From sequence record PZ583738.1: 64,000 nt of DNA; one strand, given 5' to 3'. The position numbers and the translations under genes are program-made. Source of the stretch: a phage. The notes beneath the pieces were generated by a model that did not search any database, had not been told where the DNA came from, and was given only the letters and a program-made list of their open reading frames with translations. Positions 2,094-59,537 of this stretch are shown here, piece by piece; the stretch's first letter is position 1, and the number at the start of each line of letters is the position of its first letter.

Positions 2094-4349
2094 ATGCAAG
2101 TACAAAAAAGTAGTGGTGTATCTCAAGATTTTGATGGCCAGAAAATTATTAAAGTTCTTTCCTGGTCATGTGAAGGAACTAATATCGACCCGTATGAATT
2201 ATACGAAACAATCAAACCACATCTGCGCGATGGCATGACTACTCGCGATATTCAGACGGTTATCATCAAAGTATCCGCTGGGCTTATTTCGGTTGAAGAA
2301 CCAGATTACCAATATGTTGCAGCCAAAGCTACGATGTTTGCTCTGCGTAAAGATGTTTATGGCCAGTTTGAGCCACGTTCTTTTATTGACCAGATTTCTT
2401 ATTGTGTTAATGAAGGTAAATATGACCCAGAGCTGTTGTCAAGCTACTCAGCTGAAGAGATTACTTACCTGGAATCTCGTATTAAGCACGAACGCGATTT
2501 TGACCTGACTTATGCAGGCGCGATGCAGCTTAAAGAGAAATACCTGGTTAAAGATAAAACCACTGGGAAAATCTATGAGACTCCACAGTTCGCTATCATG
2601 GCCATCGGCATGGCACTGCACCAGGATGAACCAACGGACCGTCTGAAGCACATTTGCCGTTTTTATGATGCAGTATCTACGCAGCAGATTTCGTTGCCCA
2701 CACCTATCATGGCGGGCGCCAGAACACCTACCCGACAGTTCAGTTCGTGTGTGGTTATCGAAGCTGCGGACTCCCTGAAGTCAATTAATAAGACTGCTAA
2801 TTCAATCATCGAATATATCAGCAAGCGTGCAGGTATTGGTATCAACGTTGGCATGATTCGTGCTGAAGGTTCGAAAATCGGTATGGGTGAAGTCAAGCAT
2901 ACTGGTGTTATTCCGTTCTGGAAACATTTCCAAACGGCTGTTAAATCATGTTCACAAGGTGGAATCCGTGGCGGCGCTGCTACTGCTTATTATCCTATTT
3001 GGCATTTGGAAGTTGAAAATTTACTCGTTCTGAAGAACAACAAGGGCGTTGAAGAAAACCGCATCAGACATATGGACTATGGTGTCCAGCTGAATAACCT
3101 GATGATGGAACGACTGGCTAAGAATGATTACATCACTCTGTTTAGTCCACACGAAGCTGGCAGTGAATTGTATTATTCATATTTTGATAACCCGGATAAA
3201 TTCCGCGAGTTATATGAAGCCTTAGAAAAAGACCCGACTGTTCGCAAGAAACGCATCAAAGCAAAAGATGTATTTGAATTATTCATGACCGAACGTTCCG
3301 GTACAGCCCGCGTTTATCCGCAGTTCGTTGATAACGTGAATGACTACACTCCGTTCATCCGTGACAAGGCTCCGATTCGTCAATCAAACCTTTGCTGTGA
3401 AATTGCAATCCCGACCACTGATGTAAACAGCGAAGATGCTGAAATCGGATTGTGCACGCTATCAGCATTTGTTCTGGATAGTTTTGACTGGCAGGACCAA
3501 GATAAGATTAACGAGCTGGCTGAAGTTCAAGTTCGTGCTCTTGATAACCTGTTGGACTATCAGGGTTATCCGGTTAAAGAAGCTCTGAAAGCCAAAAAAC
3601 GCCGCAACCTGGGTGTTGGGGTTACTAACTATGCTGCATGGTTGGCAAGCAATTTCGCTTCCTACGCTGATGCAAACGATTTAACGCATGAACTGTTCGA
3701 GAGATTACAATATGGCCTTATCCGAGCATCAATCAAGCTCGCCAAAGAAAAAGGACCTTGCGAATATTATTCAGACACTCGTTGGGCTCGAGGCGAATTA
3801 CCTATCGACTGGTACAATAAAAAGATTGACCAAATCGCAGCTCCAAACTACGTTTGTGACTGGGCGCAGTTGCGGGAAGACCTGGTTGAACATGGCATCC
3901 GTAATAGCACATTATCAGCACTTATGCCTTGTGAGTCATCTTCCCAAGTTTCTAACAGTACAAACGGTATCGAACCTCCGCGTGGACCAGTCTCTATTAA
4001 AGAGTCAAAAGAGGGTTCCTTTAATCAAGTCGTGCCCAATATTGAGCACAATAAAGGATTGTACGATTACGCATGGGTGCTAGCTAAGCAAGGTAACAAA
4101 CCTTATCTGACCCAAGTCGCGATTATGTTGAAATGGATTTGTCAGTCAGCATCAGCCAATACATATTATGACCCGCAGAATTATCCGAAAGGAAAAGTTC
4201 CGATGTCAGTTATGCTTGACGACTTGATGTACAGTTGGTATTTTGGTCTCAAGAATTTATATTATCATAATTCTCGTGATGGTTCTGGTCAAGATGATTA
4301 CGAAATTGAAGTTCCAAAAGCAGATGATTGCTCGGCATGTAAACTGTAA
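2094..4349 (+). CDS. nrdA: aerobic ribonucleoside-diphosphate reductase large subunit
   Basis: 751-aa ORF; class Ia RNR alpha features (ATP-cone N-terminus, C-terminal CSACKL-type tail); colinear with T4 NrdA. Confidence 0.96.
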   Translation: MQVQKSSGVSQDFDGQKIIKVLSWSCEGTNIDPYELYETIKPHLRDGMTTRDIQTVIIKVSAGLISVEEPDYQYVAAKATMFALRKDVYGQFEPRSFIDQISYCVNEGKYDPELLSSYSAEEITYLESRIKHERDFDLTYAGAMQLKEKYLVKDKTTGKIYETPQFAIMAIGMALHQDEPTDRLKHICRFYDAVSTQQISLPTPIMAGARTPTRQFSSCVVIEAADSLKSINKTANSIIEYISKRAGIGINVGMIRAEGSKIGMGEVKHTGVIPFWKHFQTAVKSCSQGGIRGGAATAYYPIWHLEVENLLVLKNNKGVEENRIRHMDYGVQLNNLMMERLAKNDYITLFSPHEAGSELYYSYFDNPDKFRELYEALEKDPTVRKKRIKAKDVFELFMTERSGTARVYPQFVDNVNDYTPFIRDKAPIRQSNLCCEIAIPTTDVNSEDAEIGLCTLSAFVLDSFDWQDQDKINELAEVQVRALDNLLDYQGYPVKEALKAKKRRNLGVGVTNYAAWLASNFASYADANDLTHELFERLQYGLIRASIKLAKEKGPCEYYSDTRWARGELPIDWYNKKIDQIAAPNYVCDWAQLREDLVEHGIRNSTLSALMPCESSSQVSNSTNGIEPPRGPVSIKESKEGSFNQVVPNIEHNKGLYDYAWVLAKQGNKPYLTQVAIMLKWICQSASANTYYDPQNYPKGKVPMSVMLDDLMYSWYFGLKNLYYHNSRDGSGQDDYEIEVPKADDCSACKL

Positions 4350-5074
4350 TGAATTATAAGAAAATATATGATTCTCTAATTGAGAGGCGGAAAGCCTCTC
4401 CTTTAGAAGGCTATACCGAATCCCATCATATTATTCCCAAATGCATGGGCGGCACAGATGACAAATCCAATTTAGTTAAATTATCAGCTCGAGAACATTT
4501 CGTTGCGCATCAATTACTGTACAAAATATATAGAACTCATGGATTACTTTGTGCTATTACATTAATGTGTACGGATAAATTTGGTAATAGATTGAATAAT
4601 CGATTATATGAATGGCATAGACTTAGATTTGCAGAGTCCTCTTCCAAACATATGAAAGAATATTTTAAAAATAATCCACATCCAAAGGGAATGTTAGGTA
4701 AGCATCATTCCGATAAATCTAAAGAACAAGTTTCAATTGCAAATAGAACTTCGGTTCCATCAATTAAAATTTTCAAATTTGATTTAGCCGGAAAATTTAT
4801 TGAAAGCTTCCAGTCAATTGCCGAAGCTGCTCGGCATGTTAACGGTAATGCATCAAATCTAAAATATTGTGCAGAAGGGAAATTCCAATATGCATATGGA
4901 TTCAGATGGTCATATAAACCGGATGCAACCTTTGCAGAAGTCAAGGACCGAGCATATAAAGGAATACGCGGTAAAATTTGGATTAATGATGGCTCATCTT
5001 GTACGCTTATAGAAAAGGGTGGTATTATACCTTCAGGTTGGAAACGTGGAAGAATTTTAAAGAGGAAAAATTAA
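4349..5074 (+). CDS. mobE: freestanding HNH homing endonuclease (MobE-like) between nrdA and nrdB
   Basis: HNH motif (ESHHIIPK...GG.D...N...REH..AH) at N-terminus; C-terminal NUMOD1-like helix (FQSIAEAARHVNGNASNLKYCAEGK...GFRW); same position as T4 mobE; start overlaps nrdA stop, stop overlaps nrdB start. Confidence 0.85.
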   Translation: MNYKKIYDSLIERRKASPLEGYTESHHIIPKCMGGTDDKSNLVKLSAREHFVAHQLLYKIYRTHGLLCAITLMCTDKFGNRLNNRLYEWHRLRFAESSSKHMKEYFKNNPHPKGMLGKHHSDKSKEQVSIANRTSVPSIKIFKFDLAGKFIESFQSIAEAARHVNGNASNLKYCAEGKFQYAYGFRWSYKPDATFAEVKDRAYKGIRGKIWINDGSSCTLIEKGGIIPSGWKRGRILKRKN

Positions 5075-11262: not shown

Positions 11263-11287
11263 CGCTTTAAAAATTTTATGGTATAAT
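11263..11287 (+). promoter_or_regulatory. middle promoter (MotA box GCTTTA, 12-nt spacer, TATAAT) with GGGGTCTAGG extension
   Basis: Matches T4 middle promoter architecture; upstream of ORF 11334. Confidence 0.55.
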
Positions 11288-11333
11288 GGGGTCTAGGTCC
11301 TTTGGATACCCCAATAACTAAGCGAGAAAAGAA

Positions 11334-11612
11334 ATGTTTCCTACATATTCTGAAATTGTTAAAGTACTTTTTAGTCAGATTGTATCTGATTATCTATACG
11401 AAAGCGTCGACGTGTCGACTGAACTAAAAGTGCACGGTCGTTTGTCTGCTATTCTGGAAATCATGTTCCCGGATGCAGTTGATGCAATCACTGTTCAACT
11501 CACGCCTGGTGCAGCATTTGCAATTGTTCCGTTTAAAATTGATAACCACATTTTGGCTATTTCATGCAAAATGGACTTCCAGAAACAAACGGTAGTTGTC
11601 GAAGCAATTTAA
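11334..11612 (+). CDS. hypothetical protein
   Basis: 92-aa ORF downstream of a MotA-box/TATAAT middle-type promoter. Confidence 0.55.
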   Translation: MFPTYSEIVKVLFSQIVSDYLYESVDVSTELKVHGRLSAILEIMFPDAVDAITVQLTPGAAFAIVPFKIDNHILAISCKMDFQKQTVVVEAI

Positions 11613-11672: not shown

Positions 11673-12215
11673 ATGAGTAATTTCTTTGAAGAAGGCAAGT
11701 TTTACAAGTTCGCATCTGAAAATGCCAAAAAACAGTTTATTGCCGGAGGCTGGGCAGCTAATTACCAAATTGCTGGATACATCGGTATGACTCCGTTTGA
11801 AGTGAAAATTGTACCTGATACCGCGAGCGGTGGAAGAAAAGTTTGTGAGATACGTTTGATTGATGAAAATGATTTTGTGGATTTGGCAAAAATATCTGGC
11901 ACACAGAACAGGCATCATGGAGCAATGTTTGTTTCTGCTGGTCCATTGTCTGATGAATTTGATTATTTCATCCAAGCGGAAGTTGGTGTTAAGCCAGAAG
12001 TTGAACCTGTGCCAGTAAAACTTGCATCAGTTTGGAAATTGCTTGTGGTTAAAAATGGCAAGATTGAGATTAACTCTCGTCATGTGTCAAAAGAATATGC
12101 GGAAGGCGAAGCAGAGCGTCTGTTAAACCGCGGTACTGTTGAAGATTGTTATATTATCAAAGGCGATATCACAAAAGCTTCTATCATTAAACAAGTAAAA
12201 CAGGAGACAATCTGA
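11673..12215 (+). CDS. hypothetical protein
   Basis: 180-aa ORF with GAGGAAAA RBS downstream of GTTTAC/TATAAT early promoter. Confidence 0.6.
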   Translation: MSNFFEEGKFYKFASENAKKQFIAGGWAANYQIAGYIGMTPFEVKIVPDTASGGRKVCEIRLIDENDFVDLAKISGTQNRHHGAMFVSAGPLSDEFDYFIQAEVGVKPEVEPVPVKLASVWKLLVVKNGKIEINSRHVSKEYAEGEAERLLNRGTVEDCYIIKGDITKASIIKQVKQETI

Positions 12216-12795: not shown

Positions 12796-13377
12796 ATGAA
12801 ACCAACTACTGTTCTGCAAATCGCATACCTTGTATCTCAAGAATCCAAATGTTGCTCCTGGAAAGTGGGAGCTGTTATTGAAAAGAATGGCCGTATTATT
12901 TCTACAGGGTATAATGGTTCCCCTGCAGGTGGGGTTAACTGTTGCGAGCACGCGGAAGAGCAAGGTTGGTTACTGAATAAACCTAAACCTGTTCTCATCC
13001 CTGGTCATAAGCCAGAATGCGTGAGATTCAGTCAGGTTGACCGTTTTGTATTGGCGAAAGCCCATCGCGAAGAACATTCTGCATGGTCAAAGAACAACGA
13101 AATTCATGCCGAGCTTAATGCGATTCTGTTCGCAGCCAGAATGGGTTCGTCAATTGAAGGCGCTACTATGTATGTGACGCTTTCTCCTTGTCCTGATTGC
13201 GCAAAGGCAATTTCTCAATCAGGAATCAAGAAATTGGTTTACTGTGAAACGTATGATAAGAATATTCCTGGTTGGGATGATATCCTGAAGAACGCAGGAA
13301 TTGAGGTGTTCAATGTGCCTAAGCGTAGTCTAGACAAATTGAACTGGGAAAACATTAACGAATTTTGTGGTGAATAA
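12796..13377 (+). CDS. cd: dCMP deaminase
   Basis: Zn-binding deaminase motifs (HAE...PCPDCA); near-identical to T4 Cd over the full length as I recall it. Confidence 0.95.
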   Translation: MKPTTVLQIAYLVSQESKCCSWKVGAVIEKNGRIISTGYNGSPAGGVNCCEHAEEQGWLLNKPKPVLIPGHKPECVRFSQVDRFVLAKAHREEHSAWSKNNEIHAELNAILFAARMGSSIEGATMYVTLSPCPDCAKAISQSGIKKLVYCETYDKNIPGWDDILKNAGIEVFNVPKRSLDKLNWENINEFCGE

Positions 13378-21303: not shown

Positions 21304-21594
21304 ATGAAATCATCTTTTCGCTTTAATGGTCAGGAACTGGTAGTTGAGAATGTTATCCCGGCTTCAGAAGAGTTTGACAGCGCGGTAGGTAATGAACTGC
21401 GGCGAGTGTTTGGCGAAGATAAGAAGTTTGACCTTCGCCCTGTTGAAAACTTTGTAAATTCTGAACAAACAGAAAATATTTTTAATGGTGTAGTAACTGG
21501 ACAACTTGAATCTGAAGCACCAATTGCAATTACAGTCTTTGTTAAGAAAGAAGCTGTCATGACTGCAGCAGGTTTCATTTCATTCCGCAAATAA
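21304..21594 (+). CDS. hypothetical protein (alt.-x position)
   Basis: 97 aa from ATG with GAGGAAAA RBS after an early promoter; followed by bidirectional terminator. Confidence 0.55.
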   Translation: MKSSFRFNGQELVVENVIPASEEFDSAVGNELRRVFGEDKKFDLRPVENFVNSEQTENIFNGVVTGQLESEAPIAITVFVKKEAVMTAAGFISFRK

Positions 21595-21598
21595 AAAA

Positions 21599-21620
21599 GG
21601 GACCTTCGGGTCCCTTTCTT
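21599..21620. terminator. bidirectional terminator GGGACC-TTCG-GGTCCC flanked by A-run and T-run
   Basis: Between convergent ORF 21304 (plus) and gene 54 (minus). Confidence 0.8.
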
Positions 21621-21621
21621 T

Positions 21622-22581
21622 TTATAATATACGTTGACTTCCACCGGAGATTGTTCTCCCAGAACCAGTGAACGTATTGTATAGACTTGTTAACCCAGAT
21701 TGAGCACCAGACAAGCGACTCAATTTGGCAACTTCTGAGTTCAAGTTGTTATCTGAACTAATACCAGATACACCCTTAATAACCTTATCTTCCAACCATT
21801 CCAATGCCGCAGCTCTTCCCACCGCACCAGTTGACATAACGCGATAAGCAAAAGTCACATCAAATGTAGCTATCTGATTATCCCCTTCATAGCTCAATTC
21901 AGGCGCTGATACACTTACAGGAACACAACCAGTTAACATAACAACCGTATGCGGTAACCCATTACGCGAATGAAGGTTAACCTGAATATCAGCTTCAACG
22001 TCTTCAGGCAAGGCCCTTAGCTGGGTAACTGGGTCCTGTACAGAGTTGACCCAATCGTTAAATGCTCTAAAGTTCCCTGCCTCTGAATCCATTCTAAAAC
22101 TCAATACCAACGGAGAATATTCTCTCCCGGTTATCTTGATATTTGGTGCATTATGGTTAAGGTCCATTTCGTAGTTCAATGTGTTATCTGGAAGCTTAAC
22201 AGAGTGAACTAATAGACCAGCCGTTGGATAAGCCATATTAAAGAAATCAAGCAGGTAAGTACCAACCTCAAATTCCCCTAATAACGATTGCACAACACGG
22301 TTACTCATTGCCCCGATAAGATATTTGCTTATCCCTGATTTGCGAATAAGCTTTTGTGTCCCGGCAGTAACAAGAGTTGTTATCCCCTGAGTTAAGTCAC
22401 CTTGAGTTAATCCGAACCAATCTGAGTTAACAGGAAGGTTACTGAATAATGCGCCGCCGAACTGGTCCAGAAGATTCTGAGATTTGGAGGAAGGCGTGGT
22501 CGCGAAGACCACACTAAAAAGGTTATTCCTCTGCAAGTCGATATTAATCGCTTGTGTTTGAAATTCTTGTAAAGTAAACAT
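21622..22581 (-). CDS. 54: baseplate tail-tube initiator gp54
   Basis: 319 aa; strong colinearity with T4 gp54 (RNNLFSVVFATTPS...GITTLVTAGTQKLIRKSG...). Confidence 0.93.
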   Translation of the reverse strand: MFTLQEFQTQAINIDLQRNNLFSVVFATTPSSKSQNLLDQFGGALFSNLPVNSDWFGLTQGDLTQGITTLVTAGTQKLIRKSGISKYLIGAMSNRVVQSLLGEFEVGTYLLDFFNMAYPTAGLLVHSVKLPDNTLNYEMDLNHNAPNIKITGREYSPLVLSFRMDSEAGNFRAFNDWVNSVQDPVTQLRALPEDVEADIQVNLHSRNGLPHTVVMLTGCVPVSVSAPELSYEGDNQIATFDVTFAYRVMSTGAVGRAAALEWLEDKVIKGVSGISSDNNLNSEVAKLSRLSGAQSGLTSLYNTFTGSGRTISGGSQRIL

Positions 22582-28879: not shown

Positions 28880-28904
28880 TGCTTTAATTTTATGGCTGTA
28901 TAAT
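28880..28904 (+). promoter_or_regulatory. middle promoter for uvsY (MotA box TGCTTTA, 12-nt spacer, TATAAT) with GGTTCTAGACC extension
   Basis: T4 uvsY is a known middle gene. Confidence 0.6.
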
Positions 28905-28932
28905 GGTTCTAGACCCTTACATTGGATACATT

Positions 28933-29367
28933 ATGAAAACAGAGATTGAATATAAGTTAGAAGTCTTTCAGGATGAGTTGGATGCAGATTTAAAAATTGA
29001 TGGTACACAACTTCAATATGAAACACAAAACAACGTTTTGTTGCATAGCAAATGGTTGAGATTGTATACCAACTGCAAGAAAGAAATAATGCGTCTTGAG
29101 ATTCAGAAGAAAACTGCACTGAAAAAACGACTAGACCATTATACAGGAAGGGGTGACCCAGGGGAAGAAGTATGCATGGATGTGTACGAGAAGTCAGAAT
29201 TGAAAACAGTCATGGCCGCAGATTCAAGCGTACTGAAGATTGATACGTCAATTCAGTATTGGACACTGCTCCAGGACTTCTGTAGCGCTGCATTAGATGG
29301 TGTTAAGTCACGAAGTTTCGCACTTAAACATATGTTAGAAATAAGACAATTTGAGGCGGGCAAGTAA
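28933..29367 (+). CDS. uvsY: recombination mediator UvsY
   Basis: 144 aa from ATG at 28933; LQYE..NNV.L.SKWL...KK...R.E.QKK.ALK.RLD.Y.GRGD matches T4 UvsY; MotA-box middle promoter upstream. Confidence 0.93.
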   Translation: MKTEIEYKLEVFQDELDADLKIDGTQLQYETQNNVLLHSKWLRLYTNCKKEIMRLEIQKKTALKKRLDHYTGRGDPGEEVCMDVYEKSELKTVMAADSSVLKIDTSIQYWTLLQDFCSAALDGVKSRSFALKHMLEIRQFEAGK

Positions 29368-29968: not shown

Positions 29969-30193
29969 GAAATCTTCGTCTTCGTCTTCGTCCATATCCT
30001 CAAGCTCGGCACGTTTACCGGCAAGAGCGTCACGAACACTGATATCATCGGAATCTTTCAGTTCAGCTTCTTTGCTGCGTTTCTTATAATAGCCTTCCAA
30101 CTCCTTCAGACCGTCCATGGTCTGACAGGAACCAATCTTAGACATAAAGCTTTCGATTGATGCTTCGTACATAATTTCTTCGAAGGATTTCAT
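29966..30193 (-). CDS. UvsW.1-like small acidic protein
   Basis: 75 aa with acidic C-terminal tail (DMDEDEDEDF); located downstream of uvsW as in T4, but separated from it by an HNH gene. Confidence 0.6.
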   Translation of the reverse strand: MKSFEEIMYEASIESFMSKIGSCQTMDGLKELEGYYKKRSKEAELKDSDDISVRDALAGKRAELEDMDEDEDEDF

Positions 30194-30978
30194 TATATTT
30201 CCACCTGTTTAATAAATTTATCGACCATTTTCCCATAGTGTACTTTAGGATATCCAGCTTCGACAGCGATTTTGGTAAATCCCGTTACTTTAGGTTTATT
30301 GTTATTTATCCAAAGTAAAAATAACTCGTCATATAATAGCCAATGCGGATATTTTTTGGCATGAGTCTCTTTCCAATTTTTGGAATGGTCTTCACTTCTA
30401 AAAGATTTTTTAACACCTTTATTTGCCTTTCCCGCCTTAGAACATGTCGCATAATCACCCGCCTTGACAGGAGTAAATCCTTTCATAGCTTTAGATTTTT
30501 TGTCACGCGTTTCCTGAGACTGTTTGGACCCGGTGTTTTTTGCCCAGGCCTTTTCCAAAGCTTTTAATTTCGCGGGAGTGAATCCGACTTTTCGCATGGC
30601 GTCAATATGTATTTGGAGACGTTCTGCGGACCATTCATATGAACCATGATTATTACCCATCAAAGCTTCACTAATTAAATGTGATGCCTTTTCTTTAAGC
30701 AGTGTAATGGTTCTTGAACTAACTTCTTTTAGGCGTCGACCGTTTGTCATACCAAATGCTGCGCGCCATAATTTACCACCTTGTGCTTTTGCTAAAATAA
30801 CATGAGCTAATATATGTTCACGAACTGTTAAAGCAACTAAATTATTAGGATGGTTGGAACCTCCAACCGACTTTGGTATAATATGATGTATTTCAATTCG
30901 ACAAGGAGCAGAGGTCTTTGTCCAACCCCTTGTCCTTGCATTTGAAATTAAATCATCGTAAATTTTTTGATAATTCAT
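30193..30978 (-). CDS. freestanding HNH homing endonuclease (paralog of the mobE-like gene at 4349)
   Basis: HNH motif (IHHIIPKSVGGSNHPNNLVALTVREHILAH); N-terminus MNYQKIYDDLI parallels MNYKKIYDSLI of the 4349 ORF; NUMOD3-like SQETRDKKSKAMKG; overlap-coupled between uvsW and uvsW.1. Confidence 0.85.
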   Translation of the reverse strand: MNYQKIYDDLISNARTRGWTKTSAPCRIEIHHIIPKSVGGSNHPNNLVALTVREHILAHVILAKAQGGKLWRAAFGMTNGRRLKEVSSRTITLLKEKASHLISEALMGNNHGSYEWSAERLQIHIDAMRKVGFTPAKLKALEKAWAKNTGSKQSQETRDKKSKAMKGFTPVKAGDYATCSKAGKANKGVKKSFRSEDHSKNWKETHAKKYPHWLLYDELFLLWINNNKPKVTGFTKIAVEAGYPKVHYGKMVDKFIKQVEI

Positions 30979-33203: not shown

Positions 33204-34052
33204 ATGGCTTATACCGTAACTATTGCTCCTTTGGCGGCTACGGCCGTTATTGGAGCAACAACCAATTTCACTGCGACCGGTTCCGGTGCTGCAGCTGAAG
33301 GTACCGAATCATTTGTCTGGACCGTTGATGGCGTTCCTCAATCTTCTGTGACTGCTGCAATGGATTATGTTGCTGTTGGTCCAGCAGGCAGTAAGACTAT
33401 TAAAGTTGTTGCAACAACTACACCAGCGGACGGCGAACCAGAAACAGCTGAAGCCGAAACAACTTTAACTATCCAGAATAAAACAATGTCTGGTGTTTCT
33501 GTGACATTAACCCCAGAATCAATTAATGTTCCGGAAGACACCCTAGCTTCATTTAAAGCAGATGTAGTTGGCGCACCGAGTGGAGCTACTTTTGCCTATT
33601 CATGGAAGAAAGACGGTTCTCCTGTAGTTGGCACCACGGATACTCTAGCAATCGATACAAGCACCGAAGGTTCCCAGGTAATTGAAGTTTCTGTTGTTGT
33701 ATCTGCGACTGATTATAACCCTGTAACCGTTACAAAAACTGGTAATGTAACAGTCACGGCTAAAGTAGCTCCTGAACCAGAGGGCGAACTACCTTACGTT
33801 CATCCGCTGCCAGTTCGTAATTCAGCTTATATCTGGTGTGGTTGGTGGGTTATGGACGAAATTCAGAAAATGACTCTTGCTGGGCAAGACTGGAAAACTG
33901 ATGCTCCAGATAGCCCGTATTATTTGCACCGATATACACTTCAAAAAATGATTACCGACTATCCAGAGGTTGATGTACAGGAATCTCGTAATGGTCGAAT
34001 TATTCATCGCACCGCTTTAGAAGCTGGTATTATATACGATTACGTTTATTAA
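33204..34052 (+). CDS. hoc: Hoc outer capsid decoration protein (two Ig-like domains plus capsid-binding C-terminus)
   Basis: C-terminal ~110 aa (TATDYNPVTVTKTGNVTVTAKVAPEPEGELPYVHPLP...WCGWWVMDEIQKMT...YYLHRYTLQKM) matches T4 Hoc; Thr/Val-rich Ig-like repeats upstream. Confidence 0.88.
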   Translation: MAYTVTIAPLAATAVIGATTNFTATGSGAAAEGTESFVWTVDGVPQSSVTAAMDYVAVGPAGSKTIKVVATTTPADGEPETAEAETTLTIQNKTMSGVSVTLTPESINVPEDTLASFKADVVGAPSGATFAYSWKKDGSPVVGTTDTLAIDTSTEGSQVIEVSVVVSATDYNPVTVTKTGNVTVTAKVAPEPEGELPYVHPLPVRNSAYIWCGWWVMDEIQKMTLAGQDWKTDAPDSPYYLHRYTLQKMITDYPEVDVQESRNGRIIHRTALEAGIIYDYVY

Positions 34053-34059
34053 TTAAAAA

Positions 34060-34084
34060 GGGACCTTCGGGTCCCTTTGTTTTT
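34060..34084 (+). terminator. intrinsic terminator GGGACC-TTCG-GGTCCC-TTTGTTTTT after hoc
   Basis: Same stem sequence as 21599. Confidence 0.8.
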
Positions 34085-34121
34085 ATGGTACTGTACAAAC
34101 GTCGCCTGGCATAAAAACCCT

Positions 34122-34639: not shown

Positions 34640-34665
34640 TGCTTCAAATAAAATTGTGGTATAAT
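34640..34665 (+). promoter_or_regulatory. middle promoter (MotA box TGCTTCA, 13-nt spacer, TATAAT) with GGTTCTAGACC extension; second TATAATGGGTCTA copy at ~34713
   Basis: Upstream of rnlB. Confidence 0.55.
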
Positions 34666-34763
34666 GGTTCTAGACCCCTTTGTGACTATTAATTCCTTTC
34701 AGAGAAAGAAAGTATAATGGGTCTAATTTATAATGATATTTATAACATCAAAAGTGAGAGATT

Positions 34764-35771
34764 ATGTTTAAGAAATACAACAGCCTTGAAAATCACTATA
34801 ACAACAAGTTCATTGAAAAGATTCGCCTGCAAGGCTTCACCAGCGGTGAATGGGTAGCTCGCGAGAAGATTCATGGTACCAACTTTTCATTAATCATTGA
34901 ACAAGACAATGTGACATGTGCGAAACGCACTGGACCTATCCTGCCTGCAGAAGATTTCTATGGTTATGAAATTGTATTAAAGAATTATGCTGATTCTATT
35001 AAATCTGTGCAGAAACTTTTGCAGGATATTAATTACCAGGCATACCAGATTTATGGTGAGTTTGCCGGGGCAGGTATCCAGAAGAATGTGGATTACGGTG
35101 ATAAAGATTTTTATGTATTTGATATCCGCGTTACTAAAGAAGATGGTTTTGAATCCGTCCTGACTGACACCTTGATGGAAGCATTCTGTATTATCCATAA
35201 GTTTAAGGTTGCACCGCGCCTGGCTACAGGTAGTTTTGAAGAATTAATTAAGCTCCCTAATGACCTGGATTCTGTTGTCCCTGATTACAATTTTACAGTG
35301 GATAACGCAGGTTTGACTACAGCAAATACCACTGATTTTGATGCAAAGGCGGAAGGTAAAGTATTCACTGCTGAAGGATTTGTATTAAAACCTGATGTTC
35401 CTGCATGGTTACCTAACGGCGAGCGTGTAGCGATTAAATGTAAGAACTCTAAATTCAGTGAAAAGAAAAAGTCTGATAAGCCTATTAAGGCTGCAGTGGT
35501 TCTGAGCCAAAATGATATGGATTTACTGTGGAATTTCACTGATTATGTGACTGTTAACCGTATCAACAATGTTATCAGTAAAATTGGGGAAGTAACACCG
35601 AAGGATTTTGGAAAGGTAATGGGGTTAACAGTCCAAGATATTCTGGAAGAAGCGGGGCGCGAAGGTCTTGAATTATCCCTGACGGAAAATCCTGTTGAAG
35701 TTAAAAAGCAACTCATCACAAATGTAAGAGAAACATTAAGACATGTTTGGATTGCATTAGTTAGTGAATAA
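34764..35771 (+). CDS. rnlB: RNA ligase 2
   Basis: 335 aa; nucleotidyltransferase motif (KIHGTNFS) and near-colinear identity to T4 Rnl2 ([13 protein letters not shown]...). Confidence 0.95.
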
Positions 35772-35778
35772 AAATAAA

Positions 35779-35799
35779 GGGACCCGAAGGTCCCTTTTT
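35779..35799. terminator. bidirectional terminator GGGACC-CGAA-GGTCCC between rnlB and gene 24
   Basis: A-run upstream, T5 downstream. Confidence 0.8.
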
Positions 35800-37078
35800 A
35801 ATTTATTTCAGTCAGAACTTTAGGAAGTTTCACACCAAGCAGTACAGACATATCTGAACGTCCTGCCATCAAATCCATATTTGTTGCATCAATAATACGA
35901 GCTTGTTTATCATCAGCAGTCACTGTATAAGGGTTAGCTGCTAACGCATAACGAACCATTAATGCAATAGACGGCTGCAAACTTTCTGGGTCAACGACAA
36001 CTTTGAACGAACCAACATGTTCAGGGTCTTCCAGGTCAAGACCTTCGGTATAAGGTGCATAAAACAGTGAACCCACCATCTCTTTCCCACCGAAATCTTC
36101 TTTAACACCAACAGTCACATAATCAAATGGAGTGTTCGTATCACAATAAAGCGGTAGACCATTATCCAAGAAACCATACGCATTATCGGAGAGATATTTC
36201 TCATCTTGTGGACGATGCTTCAACCAACCGGAACCAGCCAAAACTGCAGCTACACGCGTAGAAGCAACAACGTATGTTGCGGTGTAAGAAGTTGCCCGCT
36301 GAATATGGGAGACCATCTCACACATGATTTCGTACAACTTGCGTGAAGCTTCCGGAGAGTTAGTATAAGACAGGTCAATCAGGCCATCATCACAGAGCCC
36401 AGCAACTTTATAACGCTTGGAAACTGTTACCAGGGATTGCAGGATATCTTTGTTAATTTCATCAGCCATTTCGGTAGCTAACAGGTCTTCCAGGAAGTTT
36501 GGAGCGTCAAAACCGTTTGCTTCCAGGTCCTGGGCCAGTTCCACTGTAACAGTGCTTTTCAGCTTACGAGATTTAACCGGAGCATTCCATTTGTTAACCA
36601 AAAATTTAGCTTCGGCAATTTCGACTTCCTGTGGTCCTTCAAAACGTTCGGTGATTGCAGCTTCGGACATAATACGGATGGTCAATTTAACCATCGCTTC
36701 TTGAAGCTGGTCATACTCATCGCCCGTTGCTCCAGCAAATGGAGTTGCTACCAGCGCTTTATAAACTACATTTTCAAACTGGAACAAATCGTCTTTAGCA
36801 TAAACTGCGCCAGCAACAAAAACCGGAATGGTCGCACGGTCTTTTGCTGATACTGCACCAGAATAGGTTGCACCAGTCTGGAAAGATAATTCATCTTGCT
36901 GAGTCAGGTATTTAAGACCGTATAATGCCGCCAGTGGCTGGGATGTGCGCTGTTGTGCTACTAAATCGGTGTAAATCAGTTTAGTCGTAGCTCTGGTTAA
37001 AGCTACTAGATTCGGTCGACCAATCGAAGAACTTGTGGTCGTGGTCGACTCTTTTAAGAGTTCGTTAATTTTAGCCAT
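35798..37078 (-). CDS. 24: head vertex protein gp24
   Basis: 426 aa with gp23-like fold signature; position; TATAAATA ~26 nt upstream. Confidence 0.95.
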   Translation of the reverse strand: MAKINELLKESTTTTSSSIGRPNLVALTRATTKLIYTDLVAQQRTSQPLAALYGLKYLTQQDELSFQTGATYSGAVSAKDRATIPVFVAGAVYAKDDLFQFENVVYKALVATPFAGATGDEYDQLQEAMVKLTIRIMSEAAITERFEGPQEVEIAEAKFLVNKWNAPVKSRKLKSTVTVELAQDLEANGFDAPNFLEDLLATEMADEINKDILQSLVTVSKRYKVAGLCDDGLIDLSYTNSPEASRKLYEIMCEMVSHIQRATSYTATYVVASTRVAAVLAGSGWLKHRPQDEKYLSDNAYGFLDNGLPLYCDTNTPFDYVTVGVKEDFGGKEMVGSLFYAPYTEGLDLEDPEHVGSFKVVVDPESLQPSIALMVRYALAANPYTVTADDKQARIIDATNMDLMAGRSDMSVLLGVKLPKVLTEIN

Positions 37079-37470: not shown

Positions 37471-37480
37471 AAACAAGAAA

Positions 37481-37502
37481 GGGACCTCAAGGGTCCCTTT
37501 TT
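37481..37502. terminator. bidirectional terminator GGGACC-TCAAG-GGTCCC between ORF 37189 and gene 23
   Basis: T5 downstream; A-rich upstream. Confidence 0.75.
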
Positions 37503-37520
37503 ATTTAACTTAATCTAGGA

Positions 37521-43399: not shown

Positions 43400-44083
43400 T
43401 TATTGTTTCCTATGATAATTTTCTATAAATTCTTGTAAATCACGTAAAGATATACTATTATTTATATCCTTCGAACGATTCAATTCCCACGGAATCATTT
43501 CAAGATTTTCAATGTGTCCAATGATTTCGGGGTCGATATTATTGTCAAATCCATACTTGATGGAAACCTTGTGGTCTAATTGATATGCACCTTCAATTCC
43601 AGCTCTTCCGGTCTTTTCAAAATTTGGGAGATTTTGCACTTCAGATTTAAAATTTAATGCGGTGAATTGACGAACTGCATATGCATATCGTTTGAATTCT
43701 CTTAATCTTGGATTATATCGTCCGTTTAATTCCCCTCGAGTATTTATATTGGGAATACCCTTTTTGGATTTGGAGATTTTTACGCCTTTAGATTTTCGAA
43801 TTTTTAGTCCATCTGGTGTGTTCCAAAATTCTTTACGCAAATCCGAATAAATTTCCCATCTATGGCTTTTGCAGAATTGGATATTGATGTTATTTATTTT
43901 ATCTCGTGTAACTGTATATTCAGCTCCACATTCATCACATTTACAATCAACTTTGACTCGGCATCCCAAATGTTCAATGTTGATTAAATGTGTTGTTCCT
44001 ACTGAAACATCATAACCTTGCTCACGCAAATTTGTCACATTTCTATTAGTTACATTAACGAGTTGTTTATCACTTACTATCAT
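43400..44083 (-). CDS. freestanding HNH endonuclease with N-terminal Zn-ribbon, inserted between genes 18 and 19
   Basis: C-terminal HNH core (YQLDHKVSIKYGFDNNIDPEIIGHIENLEMIPWELNRSK); CxxC...CxxH cysteines in N-terminal half; TATAAATA late promoter ~115 nt upstream. Confidence 0.8.
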   Translation of the reverse strand: MIVSDKQLVNVTNRNVTNLREQGYDVSVGTTHLINIEHLGCRVKVDCKCDECGAEYTVTRDKINNINIQFCKSHRWEIYSDLRKEFWNTPDGLKIRKSKGVKISKSKKGIPNINTRGELNGRYNPRLREFKRYAYAVRQFTALNFKSEVQNLPNFEKTGRAGIEGAYQLDHKVSIKYGFDNNIDPEIIGHIENLEMIPWELNRSKDINNSISLRDLQEFIENYHRKQ

Positions 44084-44192: not shown

Positions 44193-44218
44193 TGCTTTTA
44201 TTTATAACACGGTATAAT
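44193..44218 (+). promoter_or_regulatory. middle-promoter-like element (TGCTTTT box, 13-nt spacer, TATAAT, GGGTCTAAT extension) antisense to gene 18
   Basis: Same motif family as 11263, 28880, 34640; no plus-strand gene downstream. Confidence 0.4.
44199..44206 (-). promoter_or_regulatory. late promoter TATAAATA for the HNH gene at 43400..44083
   Basis: Exact octamer on minus strand ~115 nt upstream of the HNH ATG. Confidence 0.5.
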
Positions 44219-44291
44219 GGGTCTAATCTATTCCGTTAAGCAATTACACTCAACCATAATAGGTAAGAGGGGACTTTCATCCCCTAATTTA

Positions 44292-46271
44292 TTATTGTGG
44301 CCCAATCAGCTCATCGAAATTAGCACCGGTGCTTGTTGCTACGAAATTAAGCGTGATGTAGTTGATGCTGCGCGCCGGTTTGAAATAAATGCTGGCAACA
44401 AACTCATTTCGGTCTATGACCGACGGGGTGTTGTTGGTAGTATCACAAACCACACGACCTTCATAAATGCCACCGAGCGCACGAATACCATCCAAGTATT
44501 GAGAAGTTTCCATACGGAATGATGCACGAGTGAAGTTATCGTTAAGCTCAAACAGTTTATATTTGGATGCGTCACCGATATTTTTCTTCAGCATATTCGT
44601 AAGACGGCGAACGTTGATATGGTCCATCGGAGATGGAACTTTAGTTGCAGTCTTATCACCATACAGAACAAAACCATCACCACCTGCGAAACCAACAACC
44701 GGGTTGATAGCTTCCTGATACATGCGGTCACGTTGGGTCTGACGTGGTTCAACAGCCAATTTCAGAACGTTCAGAATCTGACCGCGGTTATAACCTGCCG
44801 GAGACATCCAAGGCTGAGAAACATCATCAGTACGAGCACACAGACCAGCCATATCAGCTGCCAGAGGAACCCAACGGTTAACGTCGTTATATTTATCATA
44901 CTGATATTTATAGTTGCCATCAATCGCTGCATAAGTCGTGCTGATATTCATGTTATCAGTATCAAATGCACCAGCACCTGTACGCCAGTCAATCAGGTTA
45001 TCCACTGCACGGGTCAGAGGAACGTTAACCAACAGACCTTTCGGCGGGGAAATGAATGCCAAGCAATCCTGACGTTCGTCAGCAATAGAAACTACGTGCT
45101 TCTGAACAGTGGAAGCGGTCGCATCACCTTCACCAGCACAAGCACCAGCGATAAGTAGGTTGATATGCAGAGCTTCACGGTCAGCGAACAGGTCCCAACC
45201 TTGCATCAAATCACCAGCGGTAATCTTATCGTTTGCAGAAATACCACCAGACAGATTGATGATACCACTGAAGCCTACAGGCCAGTTGCGAGATGTTGCA
45301 TAGATGTAGTTGGAAGTACCTTTTGCAAAGTAGTCATCCAGGTAAATGTTATTACCATAAACATCTTTTTCGCCCTGCTTAGTAGACAAAACAACGTTTT
45401 CGACGATTGCACCATCGCGGCGAACGATAATTGCATATTGGTTTTCGGTCTGAGGACCATAGTTAAACACTGCACGAGCTATAGAAGCGCGGGAACCACC
45501 ACCGGGGAAAATATCCAGATTTGCAGTTGCGCCTTTTTCAAATTCAGCTTTGGATACGATTTCAACTTCAAGAGTCGAACCAATTTCACCAGGATAAAGA
45601 GCAACAACACCCGGCATTACATATTTTGCCAATGATGCCTGGAATTCCAGAGAAGTAATTGCTTCTTCACTGTTTTCTGCTTCAGTCAACAGAATGCCAG
45701 AATCGGTAACAATTTTTCCGACAGTGATGGTACCAGATACACCGGAAGAAGTGGTCGTAACTTCTGCAGTCCATGCACTGCCCAAATTAGGATACTGATT
45801 AATAGTTTTAGCAAATGCAATAATCTTATTGGTAGGAATAAAGATTGCCAGAATTTTACCATCAACATCGACCTTGGTCACACGGCCAGCTGGTTCAACA
45901 ACAGTCTGGTTGTGTTTAACCTGAATAACATCACCGACAGCATAGTTTGTACCAGCAGTTACGATGGTAGTTTCAATATTGCCAGCAATAGGGGATGCGT
46001 TTTTAGCTTCGTCACGGTTAACAACACGTACAGTACGGAGGTCATTACCATATTGCAGGAAGTTCATCCCACTCATAAAGTAATCTGCTGTTTCATTATT
46101 CGGACCACCAAACAAATCAACAAGTTCAACTTCGTTTGTAATCTGAGTTACCTGGAAAGCTGGGCCCCACTGGAATTTACCAACCAGCGCCGCACGACCC
46201 GTCGCGTTACGAACAACAGTGCTTTGGACCGTTGTTTCTTTGAGCTCAATGCCCGGAGATAATAAAGCCAT
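44292..46271 (-). CDS. 18: tail sheath protein gp18
   Basis: 659 aa; colinear with T4 gp18 (MALLSPGIELKETTVQSTVV..., NVRRL.NMLK.NIG, NYITLNFVATSTGA). Confidence 0.98.
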   Translation of the reverse strand: MALLSPGIELKETTVQSTVVRNATGRAALVGKFQWGPAFQVTQITNEVELVDLFGGPNNETADYFMSGMNFLQYGNDLRTVRVVNRDEAKNASPIAGNIETTIVTAGTNYAVGDVIQVKHNQTVVEPAGRVTKVDVDGKILAIFIPTNKIIAFAKTINQYPNLGSAWTAEVTTTSSGVSGTITVGKIVTDSGILLTEAENSEEAITSLEFQASLAKYVMPGVVALYPGEIGSTLEVEIVSKAEFEKGATANLDIFPGGGSRASIARAVFNYGPQTENQYAIIVRRDGAIVENVVLSTKQGEKDVYGNNIYLDDYFAKGTSNYIYATSRNWPVGFSGIINLSGGISANDKITAGDLMQGWDLFADREALHINLLIAGACAGEGDATASTVQKHVVSIADERQDCLAFISPPKGLLVNVPLTRAVDNLIDWRTGAGAFDTDNMNISTTYAAIDGNYKYQYDKYNDVNRWVPLAADMAGLCARTDDVSQPWMSPAGYNRGQILNVLKLAVEPRQTQRDRMYQEAINPVVGFAGGDGFVLYGDKTATKVPSPMDHINVRRLTNMLKKNIGDASKYKLFELNDNFTRASFRMETSQYLDGIRALGGIYEGRVVCDTTNNTPSVIDRNEFVASIYFKPARSINYITLNFVATSTGANFDELIGPQ

Positions 46272-58503: not shown

Positions 58504-58508
58504 GAATA

Positions 58509-58533
58509 AAAAAGGGACCCGAAGGTCCCTTGT
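58509..58533 (-). terminator. terminator GGGACC-CGAA-GGTCCC after gene 8
   Basis: On minus strand followed by T6, then the gene 9 late promoter. Confidence 0.8.
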
Positions 58534-59537
58534 TAGAATTCAAAAATAATGTTAACTTCTTCTGTCTGGTCCATTGCACGAATAATCGGTGGGCGGTTTT
58601 CCATATAAATCATTTCCCCGGAATGACGGTCCAAATCAATTGCATCGTAGTATTCTTTGATTGCTTTGATATTTGGGTCATTAGGATGTACTTTAACTTC
58701 AAGTGGGTTGGATATAATCGACAGCTGGCGGAAGCCTTTGTTCCCTGGAAGACTGAACTCTGGGAAATAAATGGAATCCATAAATGCTTTAAATCTGATT
58801 GTATATCCTTTGATTCTGTATATTAAACCGAAATCATCTTGTTGCCAGCTGATATTGTCTTTGTAACCCCAACGTGATGGGTCTTCTTCAATTTCTTCAG
58901 GCCATGGAACAACAATATATTCGTTAGTACAACGGTTGATGGATACATCAGGTGGAATCTCATACAAATATTCCCAGAGATAACCATCGCCCATATCGAC
59001 TCGTCCTTCTGTATCACCAGTCCCAGCTGGAGCTCTCGTCGAGTTATATTCAGCAGTCCATTTACCACCGAGTTTTAAACACTCTTCTTTATTGATAATA
59101 GAATAAATGGAGCAAGTCCCAACATCAGGAACGTCTACACAACGATAAACCATCCAACCTTTACCAACATCAGTTCGGTTATACGGAGCACTGTTAGCTA
59201 CAACAATTTCCCCTACCTGGAAGTTAAGCGGATTGGGATATCTGATATCGCCCCAGTCTTTACGTGGGACAACACAATCAAGCATTGACTTATAAACTTT
59301 GACTGCACCCATCATATTTGTCCAAGTATCTTCAACACCTTGTGCTGTGTCAACCGGATAAGGAGGGGCGAACCCCGGGTCATTCTCATTCGAAGCCCAG
59401 GGTTCAGCACGACCGAACGTTACATACATCGTATTCTGGTCGGGCTCATTACCAATCATTTTATAAAAGTTATACATTTTTTCAGTTCGAAATTTCGAGG
59501 TAATTATCGAACGATAAACTACAGATGAATTATTCAT
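58533..59537 (-). CDS. 8: baseplate wedge protein gp8
   Basis: 334 aa; near-colinear with T4 gp8 (YRSIITSKFRTEKM.NFY, RCTNEYIVVPWPEE, GFRQLSIISNPLE). Confidence 0.95.
   Translation of the reverse strand: MNNSSVVYRSIITSKFRTEKMYNFYKMIGNEPDQNTMYVTFGRAEPWASNENDPGFAPPYPVDTAQGVEDTWTNMMGAVKVYKSMLDCVVPRKDWGDIRYPNPLNFQVGEIVVANSAPYNRTDVGKGWMVYRCVDVPDVGTCSIYSIINKEECLKLGGKWTAEYNSTRAPAGTGDTEGRVDMGDGYLWEYLYEIPPDVSINRCTNEYIVVPWPEEIEEDPSRWGYKDNISWQQDDFGLIYRIKGYTIRFKAFMDSIYFPEFSLPGNKGFRQLSIISNPLEVKVHPNDPNIKAIKEYYDAIDLDRHSGEMIYMENRPPIIRAMDQTEEVNIIFEF

Follow-up and report, generated by a model that had tools for sequence, protein, structure and literature searches.

Middle promoters of phage T4 are described by the consensus (a/t)(a/t)(a/t)TGCTTtA-N12±1-TAtaaT, which specifies nothing downstream of the -10 element (PMC2988021). 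They are transcribed by an RNA polymerase that AsiA and MotA have remodelled and that makes no -35 contact (PMC2988021). MotA/AsiA-dependent initiation is known for PuvsY, the promoter of the origin oriF (ori(uvsY)), and for PnrdC.7, which is credited to Truncaite et al. 2003 in the same source (PMC2988021). Their starts were mapped at T4 positions 115371 and 53325, respectively (Table 1, PMC2988021). The PuvsY transcript primes replication in T4. Downstream of the -10 element, the canonical discriminator length is 6 nt; open-complex half-life is longest with GGG at -6 to -4, sigma region 1.2 makes its keystone contact, with a 10-50-fold effect, at G-5, and the polymerase makes few or no contacts at -3 to -1 (bioRxiv 10.1101/2021.09.08.459427). 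A GGG discriminator places the start 7 nt after the -10 element, the core recognition element prefers G just past the start, and the usual start preference is a pyrimidine at -1 and a purine at +1 (PMC5730371). Short promoter-bearing repeats of another kind, the PeSL/PmSL cassettes, occur in T4-type genomes (Arbiol 2010; Comeau 2014), and some of them are Mot-box-based (PMC4122927). In these cassettes a stem-loop immediately precedes the promoter, and they are located in hyperplastic regions beside ORFans.

In this study, a stretch of 64,000 nucleotides of phage DNA (sequence record PZ583738.1, hereafter the window) was analysed. An 8-kb piece around the finding showed 98% identity to Escherichia phage P479 and 96% to Shigella phage SP18, both of the genus Gaprivervirus (Tevenvirinae). 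Judged by this identity, the phage is T4-type and belongs to Gaprivervirus. Gene names were taken from the SP18 annotation. The window spans td/nrdA, cd, gene 30, alt, the baseplate genes, uvsY, uvsW, hoc, rnlB and genes for head and tail, up to about gene 7, and its + strand is the early/middle direction. A MotA-like activator (65975-66583) and AsiA (68473-68748) are annotated in P479, and both genes lie outside the window. JS98 (Dhakavirus) and T4 also encode both MotA and AsiA. The window holds two HNH-type homing-endonuclease-like ORFs whose presence varies among relatives, one after nrdA (4349-5074, + strand, NUMOD1 plus HNH) and one between uvsW.1 and uvsW (30193-30978, - strand). It also holds five near-identical hairpins AAAGGGACC(TTCG/CGAA)GGTCCCTTT (21590-21625, 34051-34086, 35770-35805, 37472-37507 and 58505-58540). 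With A-runs and T-runs as flanks, they resemble bidirectional terminators where gene direction switches.

The initial annotation had described a -10 hexamer with a conserved extension at five sites, numbered 1 to 5 here by position. The motif GTATAATGGKTCTAR was found exactly on the + strand at 28898, 34659, 34712 and 44212, against 0 expected from 100 dinucleotide-preserving shuffles. The remaining copy, at 11281, is GTATAATGGGGTCTAGG, which is the same motif with one additional G, so the five-site repeat stands with four exact members. TATAATGG alone was observed 9 times (2.9 expected), and GCTT-N13-15-TATAATGG 4 times (0.05 expected). A repeat finder independently returned the perfect 19-mer GTATAATGGTTCTAGACCC at 28898 and 34659 (family D10). 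The search in the window placed the motif above chance frequency, and MotA-box sites with the extension were also found in T4 (4), P479 (8) and JS98 (7). The repeated motif is real and non-random.

TATAAT is perfect at all five window sites. The MotA-like boxes that had been claimed before four of them are indeed present: the variant CGCTTTA at site 1, TGCTTTA at site 2, TGCTTCA at site 3 and TGCTTTT at site 5. They lie 12, 12, 13 and 13 bp from TATAAT, respectively, within the middle-promoter rule of 12±1, and no box precedes site 4 (34713). A sigma-70 -35/-10 scan did not pick up sites 2-5, which is consistent with promoters without a -35 element. GG opens the discriminator at five of five sites and is extended to GGG at sites 1, 4 and 5; the discriminator has 6 nt at every site but site 1, where it has 7 nt.

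Site 1 lies upstream of cd.3 (ATG at 11334). Its CGCTTTA (11263-11269, + strand) is found 12 bp before the -10 element, belongs to a GCTT-N13-15-TATAATGG match and is invariant in SP18 and P479. The TATAAT (11282-11287) with its extension GGGGTCTAGG occupies 11282-11297 on the + strand. The discriminator would be 7 nt long if, as we infer, the start is A 11295. In the cd gene (dCMP deaminase), the string TATAATGGTTCCC (12910-12922, + strand) lies in frame, encodes G-Y-N-G-S-P and recurs in the cd gene of JS98. It is a coding look-alike and no promoter.

Site 2 precedes uvsY and is the positional ortholog of T4 PuvsY/oriF. The MotA box TGCTTTA (28880-28886, + strand) is followed after 12 bp by the promoter core (28899-28916, + strand), which consists of TATAAT (28899-28904), GGTTCT (28905-28910), the predicted start A 28911 and then GACCC. 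The site is like T4 PuvsY in position, MotA box, 12-13 bp spacer, TATAAT and the TCT-A in which the T4 start is mapped at A. The two differ in that T4 reads GAATCT-A-AGTCC and the window GGTTCT-A-GACCC. For site 2, it is the orthology to oriF that is established; priming of replication is a feature of the T4 transcript. The longest uvsY ORF opens at ATG 28903, within the -10 box (TATA-ATG-G), and SP18 RefSeq uses the equivalent start (154 aa). Because this ATG sits upstream of the predicted transcription start, the uvsY start is probably ATG 28933 (144 aa), as annotated in P479. The 101-aa ORF at 44217, at site 5, shows the same artefact, an ATG inside the -10 box. Inside uvsY, the string TATAATGGTCTAGTCG (29136-29151, - strand) lies antisense, at a distance of about 240 bp from the uvsY promoter and facing it; no MotA box accompanies this string, which also occurs in P479 and may be a coding coincidence.

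Site 3 precedes rnlB. Its MotA box TGCTTCA (34640-34646, + strand) lies 13 bp before the -10 element of the core (34660-34677, + strand), which comprises TATAAT (34660-34665), GGTTCT (34666-34671), the predicted start A 34672 and again GACCC. Sites 2 and 3 share an identical 19-nt core, and their spacers between MotA box and -10 element are unrelated. In VR25 and VR26, the core of site 3 is fixed through +6 and the rnlB leader diverges past +6; the JS98 ortholog also lies upstream of rnlB (109893, - strand). Site 4, also upstream of rnlB, is the core copy TATAATGGGTCTAAT (34713-34727, + strand), with neither a MotA box nor a good -35 element. Its equivalent is TATAGT in P479, SP18 and VR20 and TATAGAGGGTATAAT in VR25 and VR26, so that every relative has TATAGT or TATAGA. 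This comparison suggests that site 4 is an orphan core copy, probably weak or inactive. Pairing of the 5' end of the rnlB leader (AGACCC) with GGGUCU of this second copy was considered and rejected, as it is not kept in VR25 and VR26. Sites 1-3 all come directly after coding sequence.

Site 5 lies antisense to late genes, in the spacer between gene 18 and a 227-aa ORF beside gene 19, and no ORF follows it. TGCTTTT (44193-44199, + strand) is separated by 13 bp from the core (44213-44227, + strand), made up of TATAAT (44213-44218), GGGTCT (44219-44224) and the predicted start A 44225. The orthologs in the 18/19 spacer of P479 and JS98 (99757, - strand) are antisense promoters as well, and VR26 keeps site 5. 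The 227-aa ORF itself (43400-44083, - strand) gave a match to phrog_5104 (unknown function) and none in Pfam. VR26 has this ORF, annotated as gp19.1-like, and P479 and SP18 lack it. The gene 19/18 spacer is a variable spot.

A terminator scan found a terminator-like hairpin, AGGGGA-CTTTCA-TCCCCT with a T-rich tail (44268-44296, + strand), downstream of site 5. The hairpin (44268-44285) abuts the gp18 stop codon (44292-44294, - strand), and the fold has an energy of -14.1 kcal/mol (z = -2.47). No credible ORF was found after site 5. We propose a candidate non-coding RNA of about 65-70 nt (44225-44296, + strand) that would end at the gp18 stop codon. The promoter and the hairpin are both kept in VR26; P479 has the promoter, followed by different sequence and no hairpin. 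A 5' stem of this putative RNA was rejected, as VR26 breaks one pair without compensation. A T4 analogue is P34i/ori(34), likewise a MotA promoter in a late-gene region that points antisense and gives a non-coding transcript. P34i nearly matches in sequence as well (TATAATGGTCCC-A-GAG); however, it lies inside the coding region of late gene 34, which is outside the window, whereas site 5 lies in a spacer.

The initial annotation did not count the extension as part of the T4 middle-promoter consensus, and this was correct: the published consensus has no element 3' of the -10 box (PMC2988021). It missed that T4 itself has the extension. A scan of the whole T4 genome returned four MotA-box sites of the form TATAATG(G/A)NTCTAAG(T/C)CC, among them the uvsY promoter, TGCTTCA-N13-TATAATGAATCTAAGTCC. 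PuvsY reads TATAATGAATCT-A-AGTCC and PnrdC.7 reads TATAATGGTTCT-A-AGCCC, and the mapped starts at 115371 and 53325 are both the A of TCTA, 7 nt after the -10 element. Since the mapped T4 starts fall on this A, GGKTCT is, by analogy, the untranscribed 6-nt discriminator (-6 to -1), with A as +1 and the transcribed part beginning there. PnrdC.7 resembles the window sites in its extension, its CGCTTTA-type MotA box and its mapped start at A. Its counterpart lies outside the window, and the P479 and JS98 orthologs bear the same extension. Because PnrdC.7 bears the extension, the extension is not origin-specific. The motif is thus the core, namely the -10 element, the next six bases and the start base, of a conserved MotA-type middle-promoter subclass that includes the T4 uvsY origin promoter. 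It is a refinement of a known promoter type and no new system.

These starts also bear on the palindrome TCTAGA, which had been put forward as a 5'-terminal RNA hairpin or a protein-binding site. With transcription beginning at the TCTA adenine, the start site cuts the palindrome in two and leaves no transcribed 5' hairpin. The predicted leaders showed no common fold and no common 5' hairpin, and an Rfam search of the window gave no match. A known RNA family or structured 5' leader was therefore rejected, and the hairpin claim fails. The palindrome itself is complete at only two of the five window sites; TCTAG occurs at only three, and the remaining two have TCTAAT. At equivalent sites, T4 has TCTAAG in place of TCTAGA, and other genera have CCTATG, CCTAGG or TCTATG; the symmetry is not conserved in T4, JS98 or other clades. 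The idea of a palindromic operator is accordingly weak and was rejected, and the TCTAGA palindrome is lineage-specific.

The extension was then counted across phages. The complete P479 genome has 8 MotA-box promoters with the extension and about 30 without it. JS98 has 7 MotA-box sites with the extension, and T4 has 4 plus the near matches PnrdD and P34i. Sites at uvsY, at nrdC.6/7, in the srd/modA spacer and in the gene 2/3 spacer are at orthologous positions in T4, P479 and JS98. The rnlB and 18/19-spacer sites are common to Gaprivervirus and JS98, and the cd.3 site occurs in Gaprivervirus only. The positions of sites 1-3 are conserved within the genus, and those of sites 2 and 3 also across genera. 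More than 10 clades (UvsY identity 54-85%) retain TATAATGG(N)YY(T)A at the uvsY promoter, whose spacer and leader change. A consensus of 25 sites gave G-13 84%, TATAAT 100%, G-6 100%, G-5 84% and T-3, C-2 and T-1 80% each; the TATAAT and G-6 columns are fixed by the choice of sites, because the 25 were partly located by the pattern TATAATG(G). From the start onward, the consensus is A+1 92% and G+3 72%, then pyrimidine/T-rich to +9. After the start, the sequence depends on the genome: three T4 sites read AAGTCC and the remaining one AAGCCC, those of JS98 read AGGTC or AGGTT, and those of Gaprivervirus read AGACC. Unlinked sites of one genome are more alike than each is to its orthologs, which suggests gene conversion or a genome-specific reader. 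The segment often resembles a repeat, either direct (GGTYC-TA-GGTYC) or inverted (GGTTCTAGACC); in Gaprivervirus it resembles an inverted one.

The motif is like the sigma-70 discriminator element, for which GGG is optimal, in G-6, G-5, the 6-nt discriminator and the start 7 nt after the -10 element. Lambda PR, which reads GATAATGGTTGC-A, is a close analogue of the motif core. Most of this core agrees with the known sequence preferences of E. coli RNA polymerase. The motif sites differ from both in that they pair GG with MotA/AsiA sigma appropriation in place of a -35 element and additionally conserve T-3, C-2 and +3 to +9. We compared several readings of the extension, and we lean, at somewhat better than even chances, towards an RNA-polymerase-optimised core of a MotA/AsiA-dependent middle-promoter subclass. 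On the non-template strand, this core would comprise G-13, TATAAT (-12 to -7), GG(G/T)TCT (-6 to -1), A+1, purines and a pyrimidine/T-rich stretch. AsiA would abolish the -35 contact of sigma-70, MotA on its box at -30 would take its place, and the consensus -10 would contact sigma region 2. G-6 and G-5 would contact sigma region 1.2 and give long-lived open complexes that start 7 nt after the -10 element. T-1/A+1 would serve as the preferred pyrimidine/purine start, and G+2, often present, would match the core recognition element. The outcome would be strong middle promoters with a precise start, which in the window would drive cd.3, uvsY, rnlB and a short antisense RNA beside gene 18. Sequence, spacing, orthology and the published T4 starts are established, and sigma region 1.2 contact, promoter strength and activity in the window phage are inferred.

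In many members of the subclass the MotA box is imperfect (CGCTTTA, TTGCTGT, ACGCTGTA), in line with a strong core that compensates for it. The early sigma-70 promoters of T4 and P479 have no GG discriminators, and the extension as a general property of phage sigma-70 promoters was rejected for this reason. As the early promoters and about 30 MotA-box promoters do without it, the extension is no general optimum for the phage. Against the polymerase-core reading also counts the discriminator of T4 PuvsY, which starts with GA instead of GG. In addition, known RNA polymerase contacts account neither for the conserved T-3 and C-2 nor for the likeness between +3 and +9, and the closer resemblance among unlinked sites of one genome likewise speaks against this reading. 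NAD-capping favours a purine at -1. A preference for NAD-capping was rejected as an explanation, since T at -1 does not fit.

The similarity that outreaches the region read by polymerase might instead point to a phage-encoded factor, either a DNA-binding one or a protein or RNA reading the transcript 5' end, that recognises about -6 to +9 and co-regulates the promoters, for example for late shut-off. The shared 19-nt core of sites 2 and 3 beside unrelated spacers would suit such a factor, as would the variants common to unlinked sites within each lineage and the repeat-like form of the segment, direct or inverted. We nevertheless regard it as unlikely. No variant is common to all sites of one genome (JS98 has GAATCAAGGAC, GGTCCTATGG and GGTCCTAGGTC across its sites), the symmetry is not conserved, and no candidate factor is known. 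The absence of a common leader structure and of an Rfam match also speaks against it.

The same within-genome similarity could be historical, in that duplication and short-patch recombination distributed the cores or made them alike and the likeness beyond the -10 element and GG has no function. The degenerate orphan copy at 34713 would fit such spread, and sites adjoin variable insertions, such as gp19.1 or, in P479, a mobile endonuclease beside gene 2. Repeated promoter cassettes have also been described in T4-type phages (PMC4122927). However, the spacers are unrelated where the cores are identical, contrary to recent duplication, and orthologous sites have retained G-6, G-5, TCT and A despite deep divergence. 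The PeSL/PmSL cassettes are likewise no match: the common part of the motif lies downstream of the -10 element and most sites are at conserved positions. Of the sites, number 5 adjoins the variable gp19.1 insertion, and sites 1-3 are at positions conserved within the genus. A terminator scan just upstream of sites 2, 3 and 5 found no terminator-like hairpin, and identity with these cassettes was rejected for lack of the upstream stem-loop, which also weakens the historical account. On balance, we find a purely historical origin improbable.

Similarly doubtful is the reading that the extension marks specialised middle promoters with a cis-acting RNA, either an R-loop origin primer or a silencing or insulating antisense transcript, for which -6 to +9 is needed. 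The uvsY member is the proven T4 origin oriF, whose transcript forms an R-loop primer, and T4 P34i (oriG) is a near match (TATAATGGTCCC-A-GAGAG). Three or four members, in the 18/19, srd/modA and gene 2/3 spacers, point antisense and are followed by no ORF, and conservation of antisense members extends from T4 to phages of Yersinia, Serratia and Acinetobacter. On the other side, the nrdC.7, rnlB and cd.3 members are ordinary mRNA promoters, and +2 to +6 is not conserved between genera. A review of origins gives no local motif common to all T4 origins and describes the oriF R-loop as independent of specific sequence. The T4 sites at 11.9, 53.3 and 76.0 kb lie off the annotated oriA (16.8 kb) and oriE (79.4 kb). 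Coincidence with T4 origins was rejected, because only oriF coincides and the other three T4 sites are 3-5 kb from oriA, oriC and oriE. Slightly less likely still is that the extension defines an ancient, conserved regulon which, apart from two or three messenger promoters, fires non-coding transcripts at fixed positions (the uvsY origin, and antisense into modA, gene 2 and gene 18), with -6 to +9 read by an agent other than polymerase.

Predicted clockwise MotA-box promoters were observed in two spacers outside the window. The one in the srd/modA spacer is antisense into modA and back-to-back with the srd early promoter. In T4 it lies at 11866-11905 (~11885, + strand), has a predicted start at ~11897 and the sequence TGCTTTA-N12-TATAATGAATCTAAGTCC, which agrees with PuvsY at every position from -14 to +8. 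This promoter also occurs in P479 (47798, - strand), in JS98 (11207, + strand) and in a Yersinia phage. The one in the gene 2/gene 3 spacer is antisense to gene 2 and lies at 75966-76010 in T4 (~75988, + strand, start predicted at ~76000), at 156278 in P479 (- strand) and at 74902 in JS98 (+ strand). It is conserved in T4, JS98, Gaprivervirus and Serratia CHI14-like and Acinetobacter ZZ1-like phages. Inverted repeats that differ in sequence between clades flank it; an RNA hairpin formed from them is at most a lead, as it has only one compensatory pair, which is not significant (107/500 shuffles). The gene 18 and gene 2 3' flanks open with the same block TAATCTATTATCCC (GGGATAATAGATTA on the promoter strand) at JS98 99710-99722 and 74940-74955 and at P479 ~156225-156240. 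The two antisense-promoter spacers thus share a cassette of about 80-90 bp, beyond the promoter core.

The published list of 58 T4 middle promoters (PMC2988021) does not include the T4 clockwise promoters at ~11885 and ~75988. The pair is conserved in JS98, Gaprivervirus and Yersinia phiR1-RT-like, Serratia CHI14-like and Acinetobacter ZZ1-like phages. Full-text searches of the accessible literature returned nothing relevant on the motif sequences, on antisense promoters in T4 or on genome-wide mapping of T4 starts. The sub-motif is not described there, and an earlier description in subscription journals is possible. The window promoters are thus new members of a known promoter kind, and priority for the sub-motif is uncertain.

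If the polymerase-optimised core is the true reading, T4-type phages maintain a small group of "maximal" middle promoters, in which a consensus -10 is combined with a GG discriminator and a fixed start. The published middle-promoter consensus would then be refined, which would aid the annotation of promoters and start codons in hundreds of T4-like genomes; uvsY in SP18, annotated from the ATG inside the -10 box, is an example. If the regulon existed instead, the reader of -6 to +9 could set R-loop/origin firing or the time at which antisense transcripts shut off early (modA/modB) and late (2, 18) genes. The clockwise srd/modA and gene 2/3 promoters may outweigh the main finding, as they could reveal antisense control or additional R-loop sites in the model phage T4.
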